DNA of 51,008 nucleotides, from positions 1 to 51,008 of the forward strand of contig JANXRN010000330.1 of NCBI GenBank assembly GCA_025352995.1. Direction: 5' to 3'. The stretch is from Acetobacteraceae bacterium. Lineage in GTDB: Bacteria > Pseudomonadota > Alphaproteobacteria > Acetobacterales > Acetobacteraceae. Made by a program: the position numbers and the translations under genes. The notes beneath the pieces were generated by a model, which saw nothing but the letters and a program-made list of their open reading frames with translations, was not told the DNA's origin and did no database searches. Shown here in pieces: positions 3,327-19,809 of this stretch; within the stretch, counting starts at the first letter, position 1, and every line of letters starts with the position of its first letter.

Positions 3327-4787
3327 CTATCCCGGCGCACGCCCAGGCTTGCCAGCCAGCGGCACCGGAACCCAATGCACGCCGTCCTGGGACTGCACCA
3401 ACATCAACGCCGATTTCCGCCCCGCCTTGCGCAGTTTCTCCACCCGGTCCAGCACGTCGGCTGGCGTCGCCACTTCCTCCTGCTGCACCTCAACGATCAC
3501 ATCACCTGGCTTCAGCCCTTTTTCCCCAGCGGGCGATCCTGGCAGGACCTCGGTCACCAGCACGCCCTTCTGGCCATCCTTCAGCGAAAATCGTTTGGCG
3601 GATTCGGGCGTGATGGTCGTGAGCATCAAACCAAGCGTCGAAAGCTCCACCGGCACCACGGGTTTGCTGGCCTGAACGGAGGCCAGCTTCTTGTCATCCG
3701 GCATTTCGCCAATGGCGACGCTGATGGTGACTTCCTTGCCTTCACGCCAGATAACCACTGGGACCTGCTTGCCGATCGTGGTTTCCGCCACCGCGCGCGG
3801 CAAGGCACGATCCTTGATCTCCTGGCCGCCAAATTTCAGGATGACATCGCCGCCGCGCAGTTTGGCTGCATCGGCCGGACCGCCGGTGGTAACGCCGGCC
3901 ACCATCACCCCAGTGGTTTCCTTCAGCCCAAGGCTTTCGGCGATTTCAGGCGTCATTTGCTGGATCATCACGCCGAGCCAACCGCGCCGGGCTCGGCCGA
4001 AATCACGCAATTGTTCTACCACCGTCCGCGCCATGTTCGACGGCACCGAAAACCCAATGCCCACCGAACCACCGCTAGGGGAATAGATGGCAGTGTTGAT
4101 GCCGATCACCTGGCCGTCCATGTTAAACAGCGGGCCGCCCGAATTTCCGTGATTGATCGCTGCATCGGTCTGGATGAAATTGTCGTACGGCCCGCTATCG
4201 ATGTTGCGCCCGCGCGCGGAAACAATCCCCGCCGTGACCGAACCGCCCAACCCGAAAGGATTGCCGATCGCAATCACCCAATCCCCCACCCGCGCCTTGT
4301 CAGAGTCACCAAACACCACTGCCGGCAGGGGTTTTTCGGGCTTGACCCGCAACACCGCGACATCGCTTTTGTCATCACGGCCGATCAACTCGGCTTTAAG
4401 CGTTACGCCCTCGCTGGTGATCACATTAATCTCATCGGCGCCGTCAATCACATGGTTGTTGGTCACCACAATGCCGGACGCATCAATGATGAACCCCGAC
4501 CCCAAACTCTGCATCTTGCGCGGTGCCGGCGCCGGGCGCGCATCCCCGCCCTGCCCTTGGCGCTCCTGGAAACGTCGCATGAACTCATCGAATTCAGGCG
4601 GCATGCCTGGAATTCCAGGCCGGTCGCGGGTTTTGACGGTTTGCGTGGTGGCGATATTCACCACGCCCGGCAGTAATTTTTCCGCCAAATCGGCAAAACT
4701 GTCCGGCGCCCCCCTGCCGATCGCCAGACTCGAGGTCAGACACAACGCCACGGCTGGACCAAGTATAGTTGAGTTAAACAGGCGCAT
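3327..4787 (-). CDS. degP: Do/DegP/HtrA family periplasmic serine endoprotease (trypsin domain plus 2 PDZ)
   Basis: Signal peptide present, motifs VVTNNHV, DVAVL and GNSGGPLF, and a PDZ-like C-terminal half. ATG at 4787 with AAGGA upstream. Sits downstream of hflKC, as is common in alphaproteobacteria. Confidence 0.93.
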   Translation of the reverse strand: MRLFNSTILGPAVALCLTSSLAIGRGAPDSFADLAEKLLPGVVNIATTQTVKTRDRPGIPGMPPEFDEFMRRFQERQGQGGDARPAPAPRKMQSLGSGFIIDASGIVVTNNHVIDGADEINVITSEGVTLKAELIGRDDKSDVAVLRVKPEKPLPAVVFGDSDKARVGDWVIAIGNPFGLGGSVTAGIVSARGRNIDSGPYDNFIQTDAAINHGNSGGPLFNMDGQVIGINTAIYSPSGGSVGIGFSVPSNMARTVVEQLRDFGRARRGWLGVMIQQMTPEIAESLGLKETTGVMVAGVTTGGPADAAKLRGGDVILKFGGQEIKDRALPRAVAETTIGKQVPVVIWREGKEVTISVAIGEMPDDKKLASVQASKPVVPVELSTLGLMLTTITPESAKRFSLKDGQKGVLVTEVLPGSPAGEKGLKPGDVIVEVQQEEVATPADVLDRVEKLRKAGRKSALMLVQSQDGVHWVPVPLAGKPGRAPG

Positions 4788-14955: not shown

Positions 14956-15105
14956 CCGCGCTTCCTGCCTCAAACTCAGCGGGTTGGGAAGCCCTGAACA
15001 CGAGCGCTATCGTTTGGTCCGCTGATTATACCTCGCCAGATTGGCTCTCAAGTCGGGTCTCGACTCGCGGCGCGGCTCGTTCATCTGGAGTTCCCCGATG
15101 AAACG

Positions 15106-15360
15106 CTAGTTGAAAGGTGCGACGACAACCTTGCGCGCCCCTTGCGCGTTGCGCAGACCGCCGACGATCATCATTTTGCCGCCATCGGCCGCTGCGATCA
15201 GCAGCATGTCACCAACCGCAAGCATATCGGATGCGGTATCAAAATATCCATCACGCGCAATATCAACCAAGGCTGCCTCTCCGCCCTGATAGTGCCAAAG
15301 AGTGAAGCCCTGCGCATAGGCGAGAACGGACATCGAACGGATCGAAACATTATGTGACAT
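15106..15360 (-). CDS. Small conserved hypothetical protein (84 aa)
   Basis: ATG at 15360 preceded by GAGGA. Protein MSHNVSIRSMSVLAYAQGFTLWHYQGG.. looks globular. The ORF-track extension to 15456 would run through a terminator hairpin. Confidence 0.55.
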   Translation of the reverse strand: MSHNVSIRSMSVLAYAQGFTLWHYQGGEAALVDIARDGYFDTASDMLAVGDMLLIAAADGGKMMIVGGLRNAQGARKVVVAPFN

Positions 15361-15371
15361 AGGATTGGTCC

Positions 15372-15408
15372 TCAAAAAAAAAGCTGCCTCCCGGATGGGA
15401 GGCAGCTT
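15372..15408 (-). terminator. Strong rho-independent terminator directly abutting the RBS of the 84-aa gene
   Basis: On the minus strand, AAGCTGCCTCCC-ATCC-GGGAGGCAGCTT (12-bp perfect stem) is followed by T9, then GAGGA and the ATG. Confidence 0.75.
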
Positions 15409-15520
15409 GGAGTGGGATAGGCGGTCAACCTGTGGGCAGAGTCCGCCTGCCGACACCGAATGTTTAGTCGAGGAAGGGAAAAATTGTCAACGTTTTTTTT
15501 CCTATTATTAACTAATTTTC

Positions 15521-15913
15521 CTAACCAACAATTCCTTTGATCCTCAGTGGCCACTCAAGCCTGGCGAGCGCATCATTCCAAAGTTCAAACTCAACCCGCT
15601 CGCCTGGATGGTAAGCGTCCGGTGGCGTCTGTCGCTCGCCCCAGATGCGCAGAATACGTGCGTGCCGGAGTTGAATTTTTCCAGCGCAATAGAGACGATC
15701 AAGGCTTTTAACCACATCATCTGGATCGCACGGCCTCGGAACACCCCCGCCACTGCGGCCGGAGCCTTCACGACGCGCCCGTAAAGCGCCCATCGTCCAA
15801 AACCATGCTTCAGCAACCGACCGAAATGGAACGCTTAAGGTTCGCACAGTCTCATGGCGCCCTGCCTGGGTCCGCCTGGCCATCGCTGGACGGCAAAGTG
15901 TGTTCGTCGTCAT
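15521..15913 (-). CDS. Small basic Trp-rich hypothetical protein (130 aa), probably SOS-regulated; possible regulator
   Basis: ATG at 15913 with GGAAAG upstream. A LexA-type box lies 38-52 nt upstream of the start. The segment LDRLYCAGKIQLRHARILRIWGERQ is vaguely sigma-region-4/HTH-like. No family was recognised with confidence. Confidence 0.5.
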   Translation of the reverse strand: MTTNTLCRPAMARRTQAGRHETVRTLSVPFRSVAEAWFWTMGALRARREGSGRSGGGVPRPCDPDDVVKSLDRLYCAGKIQLRHARILRIWGERQTPPDAYHPGERVEFELWNDALARLEWPLRIKGIVG

Positions 15914-15950
15914 TTTCGAAAACTTTCCTATTTCACGCAACGCGGCCTAA

Positions 15951-15965
15951 GAACATATCATGAAC
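15951..15965. promoter_or_regulatory. Alphaproteobacterial SOS (LexA) box GAAC-N7-GAAC
   Basis: GAACATATCATGAAC matches the direct-repeat consensus exactly. It sits in the divergent intergenic region and overlaps a TGATATGTT extended -10-like element for the minus-strand gene. Confidence 0.6.
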
Positions 15966-15975
15966 ATACAAACAT

Positions 15976-15992
15976 GCTCTGATAATCAGAGC
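15976..15992. promoter_or_regulatory. 17-bp perfect palindrome, candidate operator
   Basis: GCTCTGAT-A-ATCAGAGC lies between a TTGACG -35-like hexamer and the SOS box. Confidence 0.5.
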
Positions 15993-16127
15993 AATCGTCA
16001 ATTCATAATTTTTTCCTATTTAACTTTGCGAACTTTCCTATCACACTAGAGTAACAGTGTTCCGCGCTATCAGGTCCCAGATTGGGTGAGCGCAAAGCGT
16101 TGGAAATAGCTCCGAGGACCAAGCCAA

Positions 16128-16775
16128 ATGAAGCACAACGAAGTATGGCGCGCACTTGACACTCTGGCGGAGGAGCACGGCCTCTCACCATCTGGACTTG
16201 CGAAACGCGCGGGTTTGGACGCGACCACTTTCAACCCATCAAAACGCACCATGCCTGACGGACGCGCACGTTGGCCCAGCACGGAAAGCGTGGCCAAAGC
16301 CCTGGACGCAACAAATGTCTCGATTGATGCGTTTGCCGCCCTGGTAAGCGGCGCCAGGACCCTTCCCGGCGGCGGGCGGGCGAATACCGTACGTCGCATT
16401 CCGCTCATCGGGTTGGCCCAGGCCGGTAGCGAAGGTTATTTTGACGACGGTGGCTATCCGGTTGGCGGCAGTTGGGATGAAGTGAGCCTACCCGAAGTGG
16501 GGGATCCACATGCCTATGCGTTGGAAATCAGCGGCGACTCGATGGAACCAGTATTTCGTGACGGCGACCTTGTGATCGTCTCGCCCGCCGCACCACTCCG
16601 CCGCGGCGATCGGGTCGTGATCAGGATCGGAACTGGCGCAGTCATGGCCAAACAACTTGCCAGGCGCTCTGCCCGCCGCGTGGAACTTCGCAGCCTCAAC
16701 CCACTTCACCCCGACTACAGCTTTGATCTGAGCGAGGTCACTTGGATCCATCGGATCATTTGGGCCAGTCAATAG
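16128..16775 (+). CDS. CI/LexA-like repressor: XRE-type HTH plus S24 autopeptidase domain
   Basis: N-terminal HTH (LSPSGLAKRAGLDATTFN) and C-terminal S24 motifs (EISGDSMEP, and a Lys in VMAKQL). GAGGA RBS. Confidence 0.85.
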   Translation: MKHNEVWRALDTLAEEHGLSPSGLAKRAGLDATTFNPSKRTMPDGRARWPSTESVAKALDATNVSIDAFAALVSGARTLPGGGRANTVRRIPLIGLAQAGSEGYFDDGGYPVGGSWDEVSLPEVGDPHAYALEISGDSMEPVFRDGDLVIVSPAAPLRRGDRVVIRIGTGAVMAKQLARRSARRVELRSLNPLHPDYSFDLSEVTWIHRIIWASQ

Positions 16776-16783
16776 GTCTCAGC

Positions 16784-18058
16784 TCATGCCAATCTCGGGT
16801 TCAGCCATCTCGCCCACGCATTGCGATTGCTAGGGTGACCGGGCGCCATTTCGGTCTGAAGAATAATTCGATGCCGTCCAAAAGCCGCCTCGAACTCCAG
16901 TTCGATCGGCTCCTTACAGCCCTCGACCAGCGTCCTACTCGTCTCAGCGACAACTCGGCCATCCTCCGTTTCAATTCTAAGCAGAAAGCGAACCGGAGAT
17001 GACTGAACGCCAGCGTGCATGACCCAAGTCAACGCACGTGATTGTCCGGAAAGCGACCGTGGGAAAATCAACCGCGCAGGCCGCTCAACCGTGGGCGAGT
17101 TGGGGTGGAGCTGACAGGACGTCCCATCGAACGTAAAAAATCCCCAAGGAACAGGGTCAACGTCCTGCACAAAAAAGGGCGATACGGTCACGCCAGGATT
17201 GATCAACACTATTTCAGGAGCGGCCGGATCAAGCAATGCGTGAAACGGCAGTTTACGCTCAAAGACTGCTACCTCGCCAAACACCGATTGTGCAATGTCC
17301 ACAGGATCGAAACAAGCTTCCACCGCGTGCGAAGCCCCGGAAACAATGTCGTCGTGAGTCACTATCAGCAATGCATCAAGCGTGTTGAGCCAGCGGGATT
17401 TTGGGTCTGCGAACACCGCAATTTCGGCGCCTGCAATGCTACATTTGATCAGATCAACATGCGGCCATTCTGCAGATTGCAACAATGTTGCGATCGTTTG
17501 GGCGTCACACGAGATCCCTCCTTGCTCAACACCATCCGACAAATACATCCCAGCTTCACCTTCGAGAACCGTATGAGGCGATAGCCGGGCCGCATGACCC
17601 CAGACGCCTACATTTCGGCAGATGATGTTTGGATAAGGCAAGGTATTGAGCAGAAGCACACGGAAAGCAGCGACCATCGGTTCGACACACAGGATTTTGG
17701 CGTCAGGGAAGCGCTGAGCGAAATGTACTGCGGCATAGCCTACATAGGCCCCAAGATCCAAAATCCTCCGCGGCCGTGCTTTCAAAGGTACATCATATCG
17801 CTGCTGCAGAAATATCTGGACCATACTTGCAACATCGGTCGACCCGTGCCGAAAAAACAGAGGGTGCGACAATTCTGGTAGTACAGCCCATCCCAGCCCT
17901 GTTGTCGCTGCCGCTACTCGACCCAAAAGACTGAAATAAGCTTGCCGCAACGACTGGTCTCCTGGCGCGCGCCGCATATCTTCCTCACGTCCTAGCTTTT
18001 CCGCCAAATCCGAGAAGGCGTGCGTATGCGCCGAGTTGTCCAACGAAGAATAATTCAT
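16784..18058 (-). CDS. FkbM-family SAM-dependent methyltransferase with an uncharacterised ~170-aa C-terminal domain
   Basis: ILDLGAYVGY motif I, VEP and LIKCSIAGAE blocks typical of FkbM-type methyltransferases. No motif was recognised in the C-terminal half. Confidence 0.65.
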   Translation of the reverse strand: MNYSSLDNSAHTHAFSDLAEKLGREEDMRRAPGDQSLRQAYFSLLGRVAAATTGLGWAVLPELSHPLFFRHGSTDVASMVQIFLQQRYDVPLKARPRRILDLGAYVGYAAVHFAQRFPDAKILCVEPMVAAFRVLLLNTLPYPNIICRNVGVWGHAARLSPHTVLEGEAGMYLSDGVEQGGISCDAQTIATLLQSAEWPHVDLIKCSIAGAEIAVFADPKSRWLNTLDALLIVTHDDIVSGASHAVEACFDPVDIAQSVFGEVAVFERKLPFHALLDPAAPEIVLINPGVTVSPFFVQDVDPVPWGFFTFDGTSCQLHPNSPTVERPARLIFPRSLSGQSRALTWVMHAGVQSSPVRFLLRIETEDGRVVAETSRTLVEGCKEPIELEFEAAFGRHRIILQTEMAPGHPSNRNAWARWLNPRLA

Positions 18059-18216
18059 AGCTCATTCCACCGAAACATATATATCGCGACTCAGGCAACG
18101 CCATCCCATGCACTGTGCCACATGTTCAGTTTCACTGCATTTCTTTACTGCGGGTCCCAGCGGACAGAAGCACCGACGGTTCCCGTCACCCGGCATCATG
18201 TTCCGGACACAGGTAT

Positions 18217-18232
18217 TTAACGAATAATTAAC
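18217..18232. promoter_or_regulatory. Consensus CtrA-type box TTAA-N7-TTAAC
   Basis: TTAACGAATAATTAAC lies in the divergent region between the FkbM-like gene and the MarR gene. Confidence 0.5.
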
Positions 18233-18336
18233 GTTGAATTATCGATTGCAAGTAGCTAGGCTGCGTTATGCGATTTGTAGGTTTGGGCGACACCAAATTT
18301 GCAGCCGTAAAAATGTCCATACAGGAGGATGCCAAC

Positions 18337-18687
18337 ATGGCCGCTACGATACCCCCAGAGAAACTGTTAGGTATGCTCCGCGACGCCATTATTGGAACGG
18401 TACGGCGGGACGGCCCCGACCTATCCGCCCGTCAGTTCGGCGTTATGTTGATTAGCTATCTCGAAGACGGTCCGCACACTGTACGCGGATTGGCAGCCAG
18501 ACTGGAGGTTTCCAAACCCGCTATTACGCGATCACTCGACCGGCTAGCGGAGCTTGGGCTCGCAAAACGGTCACCCGATCTGCGGGACCGGAGATCCGTT
18601 CTTGTCACCCGCACGCGTAAGGGTCAAGATTTCGTTTCAGATATTAGGACTAATTTGGTTGCCGCATCGAAGGCCAAAGGGGCCTGA
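18337..18687 (+). CDS. MarR-family winged-helix transcriptional regulator
   Basis: The ATG at 18337 follows AGGAGGA. Sequence LSARQFGVMLISYL..TVRGLAARLEVSKPAITRSLDRLAELGLAKR..DLRDRRSVLV. Confidence 0.8.
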   Translation: MAATIPPEKLLGMLRDAIIGTVRRDGPDLSARQFGVMLISYLEDGPHTVRGLAARLEVSKPAITRSLDRLAELGLAKRSPDLRDRRSVLVTRTRKGQDFVSDIRTNLVAASKAKGA

Positions 18688-18864
18688 CGGCCGGTTGCCG
18701 GATAAAGCAGGCAATCAACGCAGCCCGGTCGAGGCCGCACTTTGCTGGGCAGTGTCCCGAAGCGCGCAATTTGACGGCCTGTGCCGCCAAATTGGCCCCC
18801 GCGCCGGCACTGTGGCGAAAATGGCTAAACTAACGCACTGCCATAAACGATCGCGCTTGCACGG

Positions 18865-19809
18865 CTACGGACTCCGCGTGATCGCATCTACCTCGGTGAG
18901 CTCGGTAGGGGTTAGGACCCAGTTTCCGGCAGCCGCGTTTTGAACGACCTGTTCAGGCTTCGTCGCCCCCGCGATAACGCTGGCTACCGGCTTTTGGGAA
19001 AGCAACCAACTGACGGCGAGTTCCAATGCGCTGTGCCCCCGGGTTTCAGCGAAATCGATCAGTTTTTCGCTTATTTGCCAATTGCGATCGCTCAAGTAGC
19101 GATCTGCGAGACGTTGGGTCTGTGTTAATCTAGCCCCCGCAGGCATTGACGCATTGCGGCGATATTTTCCCGTAAGAAGTCCACTTGCCAGGGGAAAATA
19201 TGGCAACAAGCCCATTCCATAGGCCCGTGCCGCCGGCACCATATCCTTTTCAGCATCACGAACAACCAGTGAGTACTCGTCCTGGCAGGAGACGAAGGGG
19301 TTGAGGCCATCGGACTTCGCCGTCCACTGAGCTTCCACCATCGCCCAGGCAGGGAAATTTGAACATCCGACGTAGCGTACTTTGCCAGCCCGGATGACAT
19401 CATCGAGCGCCCGCAAGGTTTCGTCGATCGGGGTGAGTTGATCGTGACGATGCTGCTGGTAAAGGTCGATATAATCCGTCTTCAGACGACGCAAACTAGC
19501 CTCAACCGCGGCCACAATATATCGCCGCGACGCGCCTTGTTTTGTGCCGTCATCGGACATTGGCATTGCAAATTTGGTTGCAAGAACAATGTCTTTTCGC
19601 ATCGTTCCTAAAACCTCACCCAACAAGTCCTCGGAGCCCCCGCGTTCGCCGTAAACGTCTGCGGTATCGAATAAAGTGATGCCTTTATCGAACGCCGCAT
19701 GAACCACTGCACGTGTGGCTTGCAGATCCAGGCGACCGCCAAAATTATTGCAACCCAACCCAATTGCCGAGACACGCAGGCCAGACTTCCCGAGATTGCG
19801 AAGTTCCAT
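18865..19809 (-). CDS. Aldo/keto reductase
   Basis: LGCNNFGG, FDTADVYG and SRRYI motifs. Confidence 0.9.
   Translation of the reverse strand: MELRNLGKSGLRVSAIGLGCNNFGGRLDLQATRAVVHAAFDKGITLFDTADVYGERGGSEDLLGEVLGTMRKDIVLATKFAMPMSDDGTKQGASRRYIVAAVEASLRRLKTDYIDLYQQHRHDQLTPIDETLRALDDVIRAGKVRYVGCSNFPAWAMVEAQWTAKSDGLNPFVSCQDEYSLVVRDAEKDMVPAARAYGMGLLPYFPLASGLLTGKYRRNASMPAGARLTQTQRLADRYLSDRNWQISEKLIDFAETRGHSALELAVSWLLSQKPVASVIAGATKPEQVVQNAAAGNWVLTPTELTEVDAITRSP

Follow-up and report, generated by a model that had tools for sequence, protein, structure and literature searches.

A conserved LexA-type box between a CI-like S24 regulator gene and a small basic protein gene points to a likely SOS-type input in Acetobacteraceae

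The closest described counterparts of the locus reported here are the LexA-controlled promoters of Alphaproteobacteria and several units in which a regulator with an S24 peptidase domain is encoded divergently from a small gene. The published LexA motif of Alphaproteobacteria is GTTC-N7-GTTC, and the Caulobacter LexA box, GTTCttgttatGTTC, is a consensus derived from SOS promoters with backing from LexA chromatin immunoprecipitation sequencing. In Acinetobacter, the self-cleaving S24 regulator UmuDAb is encoded divergently from DdrR, a small lineage-restricted protein that is described as damage-inducible, of unknown fold and a modulator of UmuDAb. Francisella FddR, which regulates 'self-contained divergently transcribed units', and the non-canonical LexAs of Bacteroidetes are vertically inherited CI-type S24 proteins that look like co-opted phage repressors. 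Looser parallels, with a CI-like S24 gene divergent from a small basic protein gene, are found in phage lambda (cI/cro), phage 186 (Tum) and Pseudomonas (PrtR/PrtN). In coliphage 186, the small protein Tum is under the control of LexA. Here we analyze a 214-bp interval, positions 15914-16127 of a 51,008-nt stretch of DNA from an Acetobacteraceae bacterium (the window; positions 1-51,008 of contig JANXRN010000330.1, assembly GCA_025352995.1), which separates a CI-like S24 regulator gene from a divergent gene for a 130-aa basic protein and carries a box of the LexA type.

Like the LexA operators of Caulobacter, Rhodobacter and Rhizobium, the interval contains an identical direct-repeat core with the same spacer preference, as a single box for the promoter that lies near the coding sequence and over the expected start, but the gene it would control belongs to a family without a known role in repair, mutagenesis or division. 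With UmuDAb-DdrR the locus shares its gene arrangement; Acinetobacter lacks LexA and has one UmuDAb site over both −35 elements, whereas here a canonical LexA-type box lies on the partner gene and the S24 protein is CI-like rather than UmuD-like. The locus resembles the FddR and Bacteroidetes units in its type of S24 protein, its inheritance and its divergent layout, but those regulators recognise palindromic sites (GTG-N11-CAC, CTAA-N5-TTAG) and stand in for, or add to, a LexA that is missing or diverged, whereas here the strongly conserved repeats are only direct and the box matches the canonical LexA motif. Unlike the phage immunity regions, the pair lies outside a prophage, at a chromosomal locus occupied family-wide, and has no conserved adjacent target operon. 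The locus differs from all of the known systems compared in combining a LexA-type box with a second, non-LexA S24 regulator, a partner family without detectable relatives and family-wide chromosomal fixation. We interpret the interval as the shared control region of an inherited S24/small-protein pair, in which LexA gates the small gene and the S24 protein provides a parallel input, and assign this interpretation a probability of roughly 0.6.

The two genes form a stable pair. An earlier note on this stretch had called a minus-strand open reading frame (ORF) of 130 aa starting at 15913 and a plus-strand ORF at 16128-16775, and both were confirmed, as was the basic character of the small protein, with an isoelectric point of 10.4 here and 9.3-11.0 across its family. 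The small protein has relatives in 512 species-level genomes, and the named carriers are all Acetobacteraceae (Roseomonas, Caldovatus, Rubritepida, Roseococcus, Acidisphaera and others). For comparison we used 80 loci fetched around homologues of the small gene (876,707 bases, or 877 kb) and two additional, more distant loci (L081 and L082, from at least one Rhodospirillales genome; 82 in total). In 72 of these 80 loci, the S24 gene (70-91% identity) directly adjoins the small gene in divergent orientation, which gives 72 orthologous intergenic regions, or 73 when the window is counted, and the same divergent pair is present in L081 and L082. Together, the 512 species, the divergent pairing and its presence in at least one more distant Rhodospirillales genome indicate that the module belongs to the chromosome and has been passed on vertically. 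Downstream of the small gene, most loci have a conserved small ORF, with pyrD beyond it in roughly half of those fetched.

The element that would tie this module to the SOS response is GAACATATCATGAAC at 15951-15965, which matches the alphaproteobacterial LexA consensus GAAC-N7-GAAC exactly, as the earlier note had reported. It lies 37 nt upstream of the small-gene ATG and 162 nt upstream of the S24 ATG. Counting matches in the window alone gives weak evidence, with five occurrences against 1.66 expected and at least five in 3 of 100 shuffles. The evidence that carries the case is comparative: 51 of the 72 orthologous intergenic regions (52 of 73 with the window) contain an exact match in the same orientation and register, and eight further regions contain a box with one mismatch in register. 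Across the 876,707 bases, 54 of the 71 exact matches on either strand lie on the coding strand of the small gene, no more than 200 bp ahead of it, and no equally frequent second box is found in the related loci, where at most three matches share any 200-bp bin. When the 52 sites are aligned, the tetramers are nearly invariant at about 2 bits each, whereas the flanks and most of the spacer vary freely. The resulting family consensus, GAACA.aaca.GAACAtaaAacc, or GTTC.tgtt.TGTTC on the small-gene strand, matches the Caulobacter box in form, spacer preference included. Where the S24 gene is not the neighbour, the box and promoter are still found with the small gene, exactly in L035, L067 and L072 and with one mismatch in L065 and L070. 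In the distant homologue L081, TTGACT-N16-TATGGT-N4-TGTTC-N6-TGTTT precedes the small gene, again with a divergent S24 gene. These comparisons support the view that the box is a selected, conserved SOS-box-like operator of the alphaproteobacterial type on the promoter of the small gene.

Table 1. Features of the interval and its surroundings (positions in the window).
Feature	Position	Strand	Details
130-aa basic protein gene	15521..15913	-	Uncharacterised, strongly conserved family
CI-like regulator gene, 215 aa	16128..16775	+	N-terminal helical Cro/C1-like DNA-binding domain (predicted), cleavage site, S24 domain
LexA-type operator (putative)	15951..15965	-	GAACATATCATGAAC on plus strand (GAAC-N7-GAAC); GTTCATGATATGTTC on small-gene strand
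-10-like elements	15966..15976	-	CATGTT (15976-15971), TTGTAT (15971-15966); directly upstream of the box
-35-like hexamers	15989..16001	-	TTGCTC (15994-15989), TTGACG (16001-15996)
Perfect 17-bp palindrome GCTCTGATAATCAGAGC	15976..15992		Spacer between -35-like and -10-like elements
Tandem element TTTTCCTATT-N12-TTTCCTAT	16010..16041	+	Copies 16012-16019 and 16034-16041, 22 bp apart
Third TTTCCTAT copy	15924..15931	+	Small-gene 5' leader; coding strand ATAGGAAAG supplies the ribosome-binding site
Candidate small RNA and promoter	15374..15511	-	Transcript ~15456-15374, ~80 nt

The box is embedded in a promoter-like arrangement that is also conserved. On the small-gene strand, 17 nt separate TTGCTC from TTGTAT and 19 nt separate TTGACG from CATGTT, the TTGACG hexamer being the one that had been described beside a palindrome and was found there. 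In anchored alignments the −10-like positions are conserved, with relatives reading TATGGT or TTTTAT, and a GCAAG/GTCAA-type pentamer (TTGC/TTGAC on the gene strand) lies 22-27 nt beyond the end of the box in 47 of the 51 box-bearing regions where one was found; on the −35 side, TTGACGATTGC is invariant among close relatives. The box begins 0-5 nt past the −10-like hexamers, and the same layout is seen in the distant L081. The extended −10 element TGATATGTT that had been proposed for the small gene sits in the weakly conserved N7 spacer of the box, and is therefore not a conserved element of the promoter.

Several other promoter candidates were discarded. A plus-strand sigma-70-like TTCACG-18-TATCAT (15932-15961), which points towards the S24 gene with its −10 inside the box, is not conserved in relatives, and RpoH, EcfG and sigma-54 promoters and the CtrA box do not fit the conserved elements in spacing or order. 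The small-gene start and ribosome-binding region resembles the −35 and upstream region of its own promoter: 15907-15936 and 15995-16024 form a 30-nt direct repeat with 73% identity, TCGTCA...TTTCCTATTT(C/A)AC. One locus, L046, represents a natural rearrangement that parts the small gene from its promoter, with a 323-aa ORF, transposase-like by eye, at 3369-4438 between the small gene and the box, which is still beside the S24 gene. The window contains two more GAAC-N7-GAAC matches less than 900 bp from the main one, at 15079-15093 upstream of pyrD and at 15324-15338 inside the ORF of 84 aa described below.

The S24 protein has the features expected of a regulator that cleaves itself. Its Peptidase_S24 domain (PF00717) is recognized with an expectation value (E) of 4e-22, residues 14-214 match the PHROGs family phrog_4, 'transcriptional repressor', at 2.8e-29, and among proteins of solved structure lambda CI is its best match, the catalytic Ser138 and Lys175 aligning with Ser149 and Lys192 of lambda CI. 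In 189 S24 homologues the cleavage site Ala99-Gly100 (within Gln98-Ala99-Gly100), Ser138 and Lys175 are invariant, and the presumed recognition region, GLSxSGLAKRAGLDxTTFNPSKR, is almost invariant. A single-sequence AlphaFold model has confident helices over residues 1-75, with an N-terminal predicted local distance difference test score (pLDDT) of 74-95, and is poor past residue 75. With the LexA model TIGR00498, whose cut-off is 110.95 bits, the protein reaches 28.9 bits over the C-terminal part only, and it has no match to LexA_DNA_bind (PF01726), whereas true LexAs carry PF00717 together with PF01726. The designation of the gene as CI-like and distinct from canonical LexA, already made in the earlier note, is thus borne out by its S24 domain, its relationship to lambda CI, the sub-threshold TIGR00498 score and the missing LexA_DNA_bind domain. 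Its designation as a self-cleaving repressor holds for the residues, since comparison with homologues supports the retention of every residue needed for self-cleavage; that the protein does cleave itself is what these residues would predict.

An SOS-type input to this CI-like/small-protein switch is likely. In the mechanism that we favour, canonical host LexA would sit on GTTC-N7-GTTC, cover the expected transcription start and keep the small gene off; upon DNA damage, active RecA would promote LexA self-cleavage, and the small protein would be made. Inactivation of the S24 protein by the same damage signal would constitute a second, parallel input, and the S24 protein itself would act at a TTCCTAT element described below. 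An SOS-box-like operator together with a cleavable S24 protein makes two damage inputs plausible. LexA as the binder of the box, damage induction, S24 cleavage and the S24 operator are steps that we infer, and of the claim that the small protein is LexA-repressed, the part that stands is the conserved SOS-box-like operator on its promoter, with LexA as the presumptive binder. If LexA does gate the partner of a second self-cleaving repressor throughout a bacterial family, the module would be a compact example of how SOS layers arise from co-opted phage immunity modules, a question under current study in Acinetobacter, Francisella and Bacteroidetes. Damage induction would also give a first functional handle on an unannotated family of more than 1300 sequences without a recognisable fold, and the same handle on an adjacent, unannotated but conserved small RNA.

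Several observations weigh against this interpretation. The box is absent from 13 of the 72 adjacent loci. Both candidate −10 hexamers are poor sigma-70 matches, and a consensus promoter scan called no minus-strand promoter. The helix-turn-helix of the S24 protein stays below the Pfam thresholds (HTH_31, 0.014; HTH_3, 0.027; HTH_26, 0.12), and any role for the small protein is a guess. With respect to LexA itself, a protein search with an approximate Caulobacter LexA query, 96% identical to real proteins, returned among the matches listed only Caulobacter; a tblastn search of a plasmid collection with LexA gave no Acetobacteraceae record; and our literature search for a LexA motif in Acetobacteraceae found no paper. 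A direct repeat with an 11-bp period would also suit a response regulator.

These points bear on two alternative binders of the box. The first is the S24 protein, which would serve as a non-canonical LexA within a self-contained unit, as in Bacteroidetes or for Francisella FddR. SOS control can pass to CI-type S24 proteins that regulate both their own genes and divergently transcribed ones, the box adjoins the S24 gene in most loci, and the protein and plasmid searches just described did not confirm a canonical LexA in these genomes. However, the motif and its spacer preference are those of the canonical alphaproteobacterial LexA, and the box stays with the small gene rather than with the S24 gene in L035, L067 and L072. 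Furthermore, the 13 lineages that have lost the box keep an unchanged S24 recognition helix, which fits turnover of a LexA regulon better than loss of the S24 protein's own operator. XRE-type dimers such as the CI and 434 repressors usually bind inverted repeats, also at odds with a direct repeat as the S24 site, and we regard this alternative as clearly unlikely. The second is an unrelated regulator, such as a response regulator of the OmpR/PhoB type, in which case the module would not be under damage control at the repeat. The half-sites are short tetramers, OmpR/PhoB-type proteins also bind direct repeats with 11-bp spacing, and no known SOS gene is available for calibration in the fetched loci, whose other GTTC-N7-GTTC sites have none recognisable beside them. 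Set against this, the site agrees exactly with the LexA consensus of the class and with the validated Caulobacter box, it lies over the transcription start region, the classic position for a repressor, and it is paired with a regulator of the RecA-type self-cleaving kind; we consider an unrelated regulator very improbable indeed.

The same promoter contains the most conspicuous symmetric sequence of the interval, the perfect 17-bp palindrome that the earlier note had singled out. It is present at 15976-15992 and even extends to 19 bp, TGCTCTGAT-A-ATCAGAGCA (15975-15993), but the comparison does not bear out a function. Seven distinct palindromes in the window are perfect over arms of 8 bp or more, compared with 3.3 ± 2.2 in shuffled sequence, which places this one in the range of chance. 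It is kept in a relative with a 96% identical small protein; in relatives with 77-79% identical small proteins, the flanks TTGACGATTGC and GCATG(T/A)TTGTATGTTC are preserved base for base, while the sequence between them reads CTCGATGTATCAGGG or CCCTTCTTATCGGAG, with no compensating change. The dyad is broken between invariant flanks in L083, L085, L087, L088, L002 and L029. Since the flanks are kept while the arms change, the palindrome appears to be the least constrained stretch of the promoter spacer, and it is probably fortuitous, in a fast-evolving part of that spacer.

A functional palindrome could be an operator for the S24 protein or another dimeric regulator, for instance in the MerR style within a 19-bp spacer, or a leader hairpin that acts as an attenuator. 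In keeping with this, it lies exactly between TTGACG and the −10 region, which are 19 nt apart, and a terminator search flagged its minus strand as a weak terminator-like hairpin, although the stem has only four G-C pairs and the U tract is poor. Short dyads occur at the same place in other lineages (AACC-N3-GGTT, GGCCA-AA-TGGCC, CGAAG-G-CTTCG), and because of them we leave a slim chance to a lineage-specific operator; these dyads differ between lineages while the S24 recognition helix is almost invariant, and the uncompensated arm changes and chance-range frequency given above argue in the same direction, against a function.

A better candidate for a site of S24 action is the tandem element that lies between the small-gene promoter and the S24 gene. 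On the small-gene strand it reads ATAGGAAAA and is upstream of the −35. The octamer TTTCCTAT occurs five times in the window against 0.74 expected, a number reached in none of 100 shuffles, and four of the copies fall within 550 bp around the pair; the third copy in Table 1 is conserved in close relatives only. The 22-bp spacing of CCTA is found in 26 of 37 regions, the profile of the element is TTTTCCTATT...G.....AaTCCTA..A.acT, and, of 104 copies of the 7-mer in the 877 kb, about 59 are in this intergenic region, most of the others lying just downstream of the small gene. All lineages have the element, as they do the S24 recognition helix, and for this reason TTTTCCTATT-N12-TCCTAT is our leading candidate for the promoter of the S24 gene or for an autoregulatory operator.

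The copies downstream of the small gene lead to a candidate small RNA. Its promoter lies 31 nt past the small-gene stop codon and is near-consensus, with ATAGGAAA (15505-15498), N8, TTGACA (15490-15485), N17 and CTAAAC (15467-15462), and it has the upstream element TAGGAAAA in common with the small-gene promoter. From its 5′ hairpin, the predicted transcript runs through a C/U-rich stretch, which reads CUUUCUCCUCCUC in most relatives, to a strong intrinsic terminator that was detected as such. The candidate is found in 60 of the 80 loci, nine of its 12 consensus pairs show compensatory changes and its folding z-score is −6.05; no Rfam family matched it. The arrangement TAGGAA-N6-12-TTGAC occurs twice in the window, at the small-gene and small-RNA promoters, and hardly at all outside the module in the 877 kb. 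We therefore rejected TAGGAAAA as a generic UP element, its arrangement being nearly confined to the module; an UP-like role at these two promoters is possible. As TAGGAAAA also precedes the small-RNA promoter, the RNA may belong to the same local regulon. The adjacent ORF of 116 aa at 15106-15456 on the minus strand appears to have been called too long, since the small RNA with its terminator overlaps the first third of it. The ATG at 15360 is the most likely start of the conserved ORF, giving 84 aa (MSHNVSIRSMSVLAYAQGF...), the length that gene callers also assign on related contigs; the product has no Pfam match and a weak match to phrog_18004.

The small protein belongs to a family of 1329 homologues (610 cluster representatives) whose source and cluster names are all 'hypothetical protein'. 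An alignment of 21 members contains 37 invariant columns, and the core, residues ~29-130, comprises four helices predicted by AlphaFold, with a mean pLDDT of 80.2, and the motifs RPC[DE]PDDV and LEWPLR[VI]KG. The protein has no match in Pfam, NCBIfam, PHROGs or PADLOC, and its longer homologues have no additional Pfam domain. A profile search of PDB sequences gave a single hit at E=0.11, and Foldseek searches with the model gave as best PDB match the Q21 antiterminator (E 0.93, template-modelling score ~0.4) and E of at least 0.9 against the viral folds of BFVD. The PrtN family is included in Pfam. Homology thus lends no support to the earlier suggestion of a Tum-like antirepressor or an activator, and by analogy to DdrR or Cro our guess is that the protein binds nucleic acid and modulates the S24 regulon.

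A broader version of the LexA-gated model can be sketched from these elements. The S24 protein, the small protein and the small RNA might form a family-wide domesticated immunity-type switch, a second damage-response tier in series with LexA, in which LexA would gate the small protein and the small protein would modulate, as co-repressor or antagonist, an S24 regulon marked by TAGGAAAA, with targets elsewhere in the genome, perhaps with defective prophages among them. We offer this version tentatively and think it rather unlikely in full.

A target nearer at hand would be the phage-like cluster on the minus strand at 19944-43399, which begins 3.2 kb beyond the S24 stop codon. Its 23.5 kb contain only myovirus-type virion genes (large terminase, portal, major head protein, sheath, baseplate and fibres), and the cluster may represent a defective prophage or an element that produces particles. 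The flanking ORFs scanned included no integrase or repressor, there is no tRNA gene, and those past 43.4 kb include cellular-type enzymes. The pair has been proposed to be a host-integrated switch of this cluster, with the S24 protein as the repressor and the small protein as a Tum-like antirepressor or PrtN-like activator, and a virion-only cluster with no repressor seen would need an outside regulator if it were active. Phage genes also lie near the pair in two other loci: L024:274-636 holds a tail-fibre N-terminal fragment akin to that of the window, ~4.5 kb from the S24 gene, and L082:2634-7642 holds tail proteins and a terminase 2-9 kb from the pair. The L082 terminase is only 25% identical to that of the window, so this phage is unrelated, and phage genes near the pair in L024 and L082 may reflect chance or a favoured insertion region.

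The comparison argues against such a switch. When 20 proteins of the cluster were compared with the 80 related loci, over ~5 kb beyond the S24 gene, only two fibre-protein N-termini matched, in the single locus L024, and the other 79 loci had no similarity. By our rough estimate from typical prophage content, chance alone would place phage genes near the pair in about three of 82 loci, the number seen. The small protein matches no PHROG, Pfam family or viral fold, and the cluster's terminase is closest to that of a true phage, Acetobacter phage phiAO1 (47% identity). With the small-protein family in 512 species and pyrD as a nearby gene in roughly half of the fetched loci, the placement, read earlier as that of a control circuit, is no evidence for one, the phage neighbours being sporadic and unrelated; as judged from these loci, the prophage-like cluster is a neighbour and no conserved partner of the pair. 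We rate a dedicated switch of the cluster as very unlikely; action of the pair in trans on this cluster or on other elements is possible, and the finding presented here leaves the control of the cluster unexplained. On the S24 side, the genes at 16784-19809 encode an FkbM-family methyltransferase-like protein (424 aa), a MarR-family regulator and an aldo/keto reductase, and genes of these three kinds recur near the S24 gene in varying order in a subset of the related genomes (L002, L008, L027, L030 and others).

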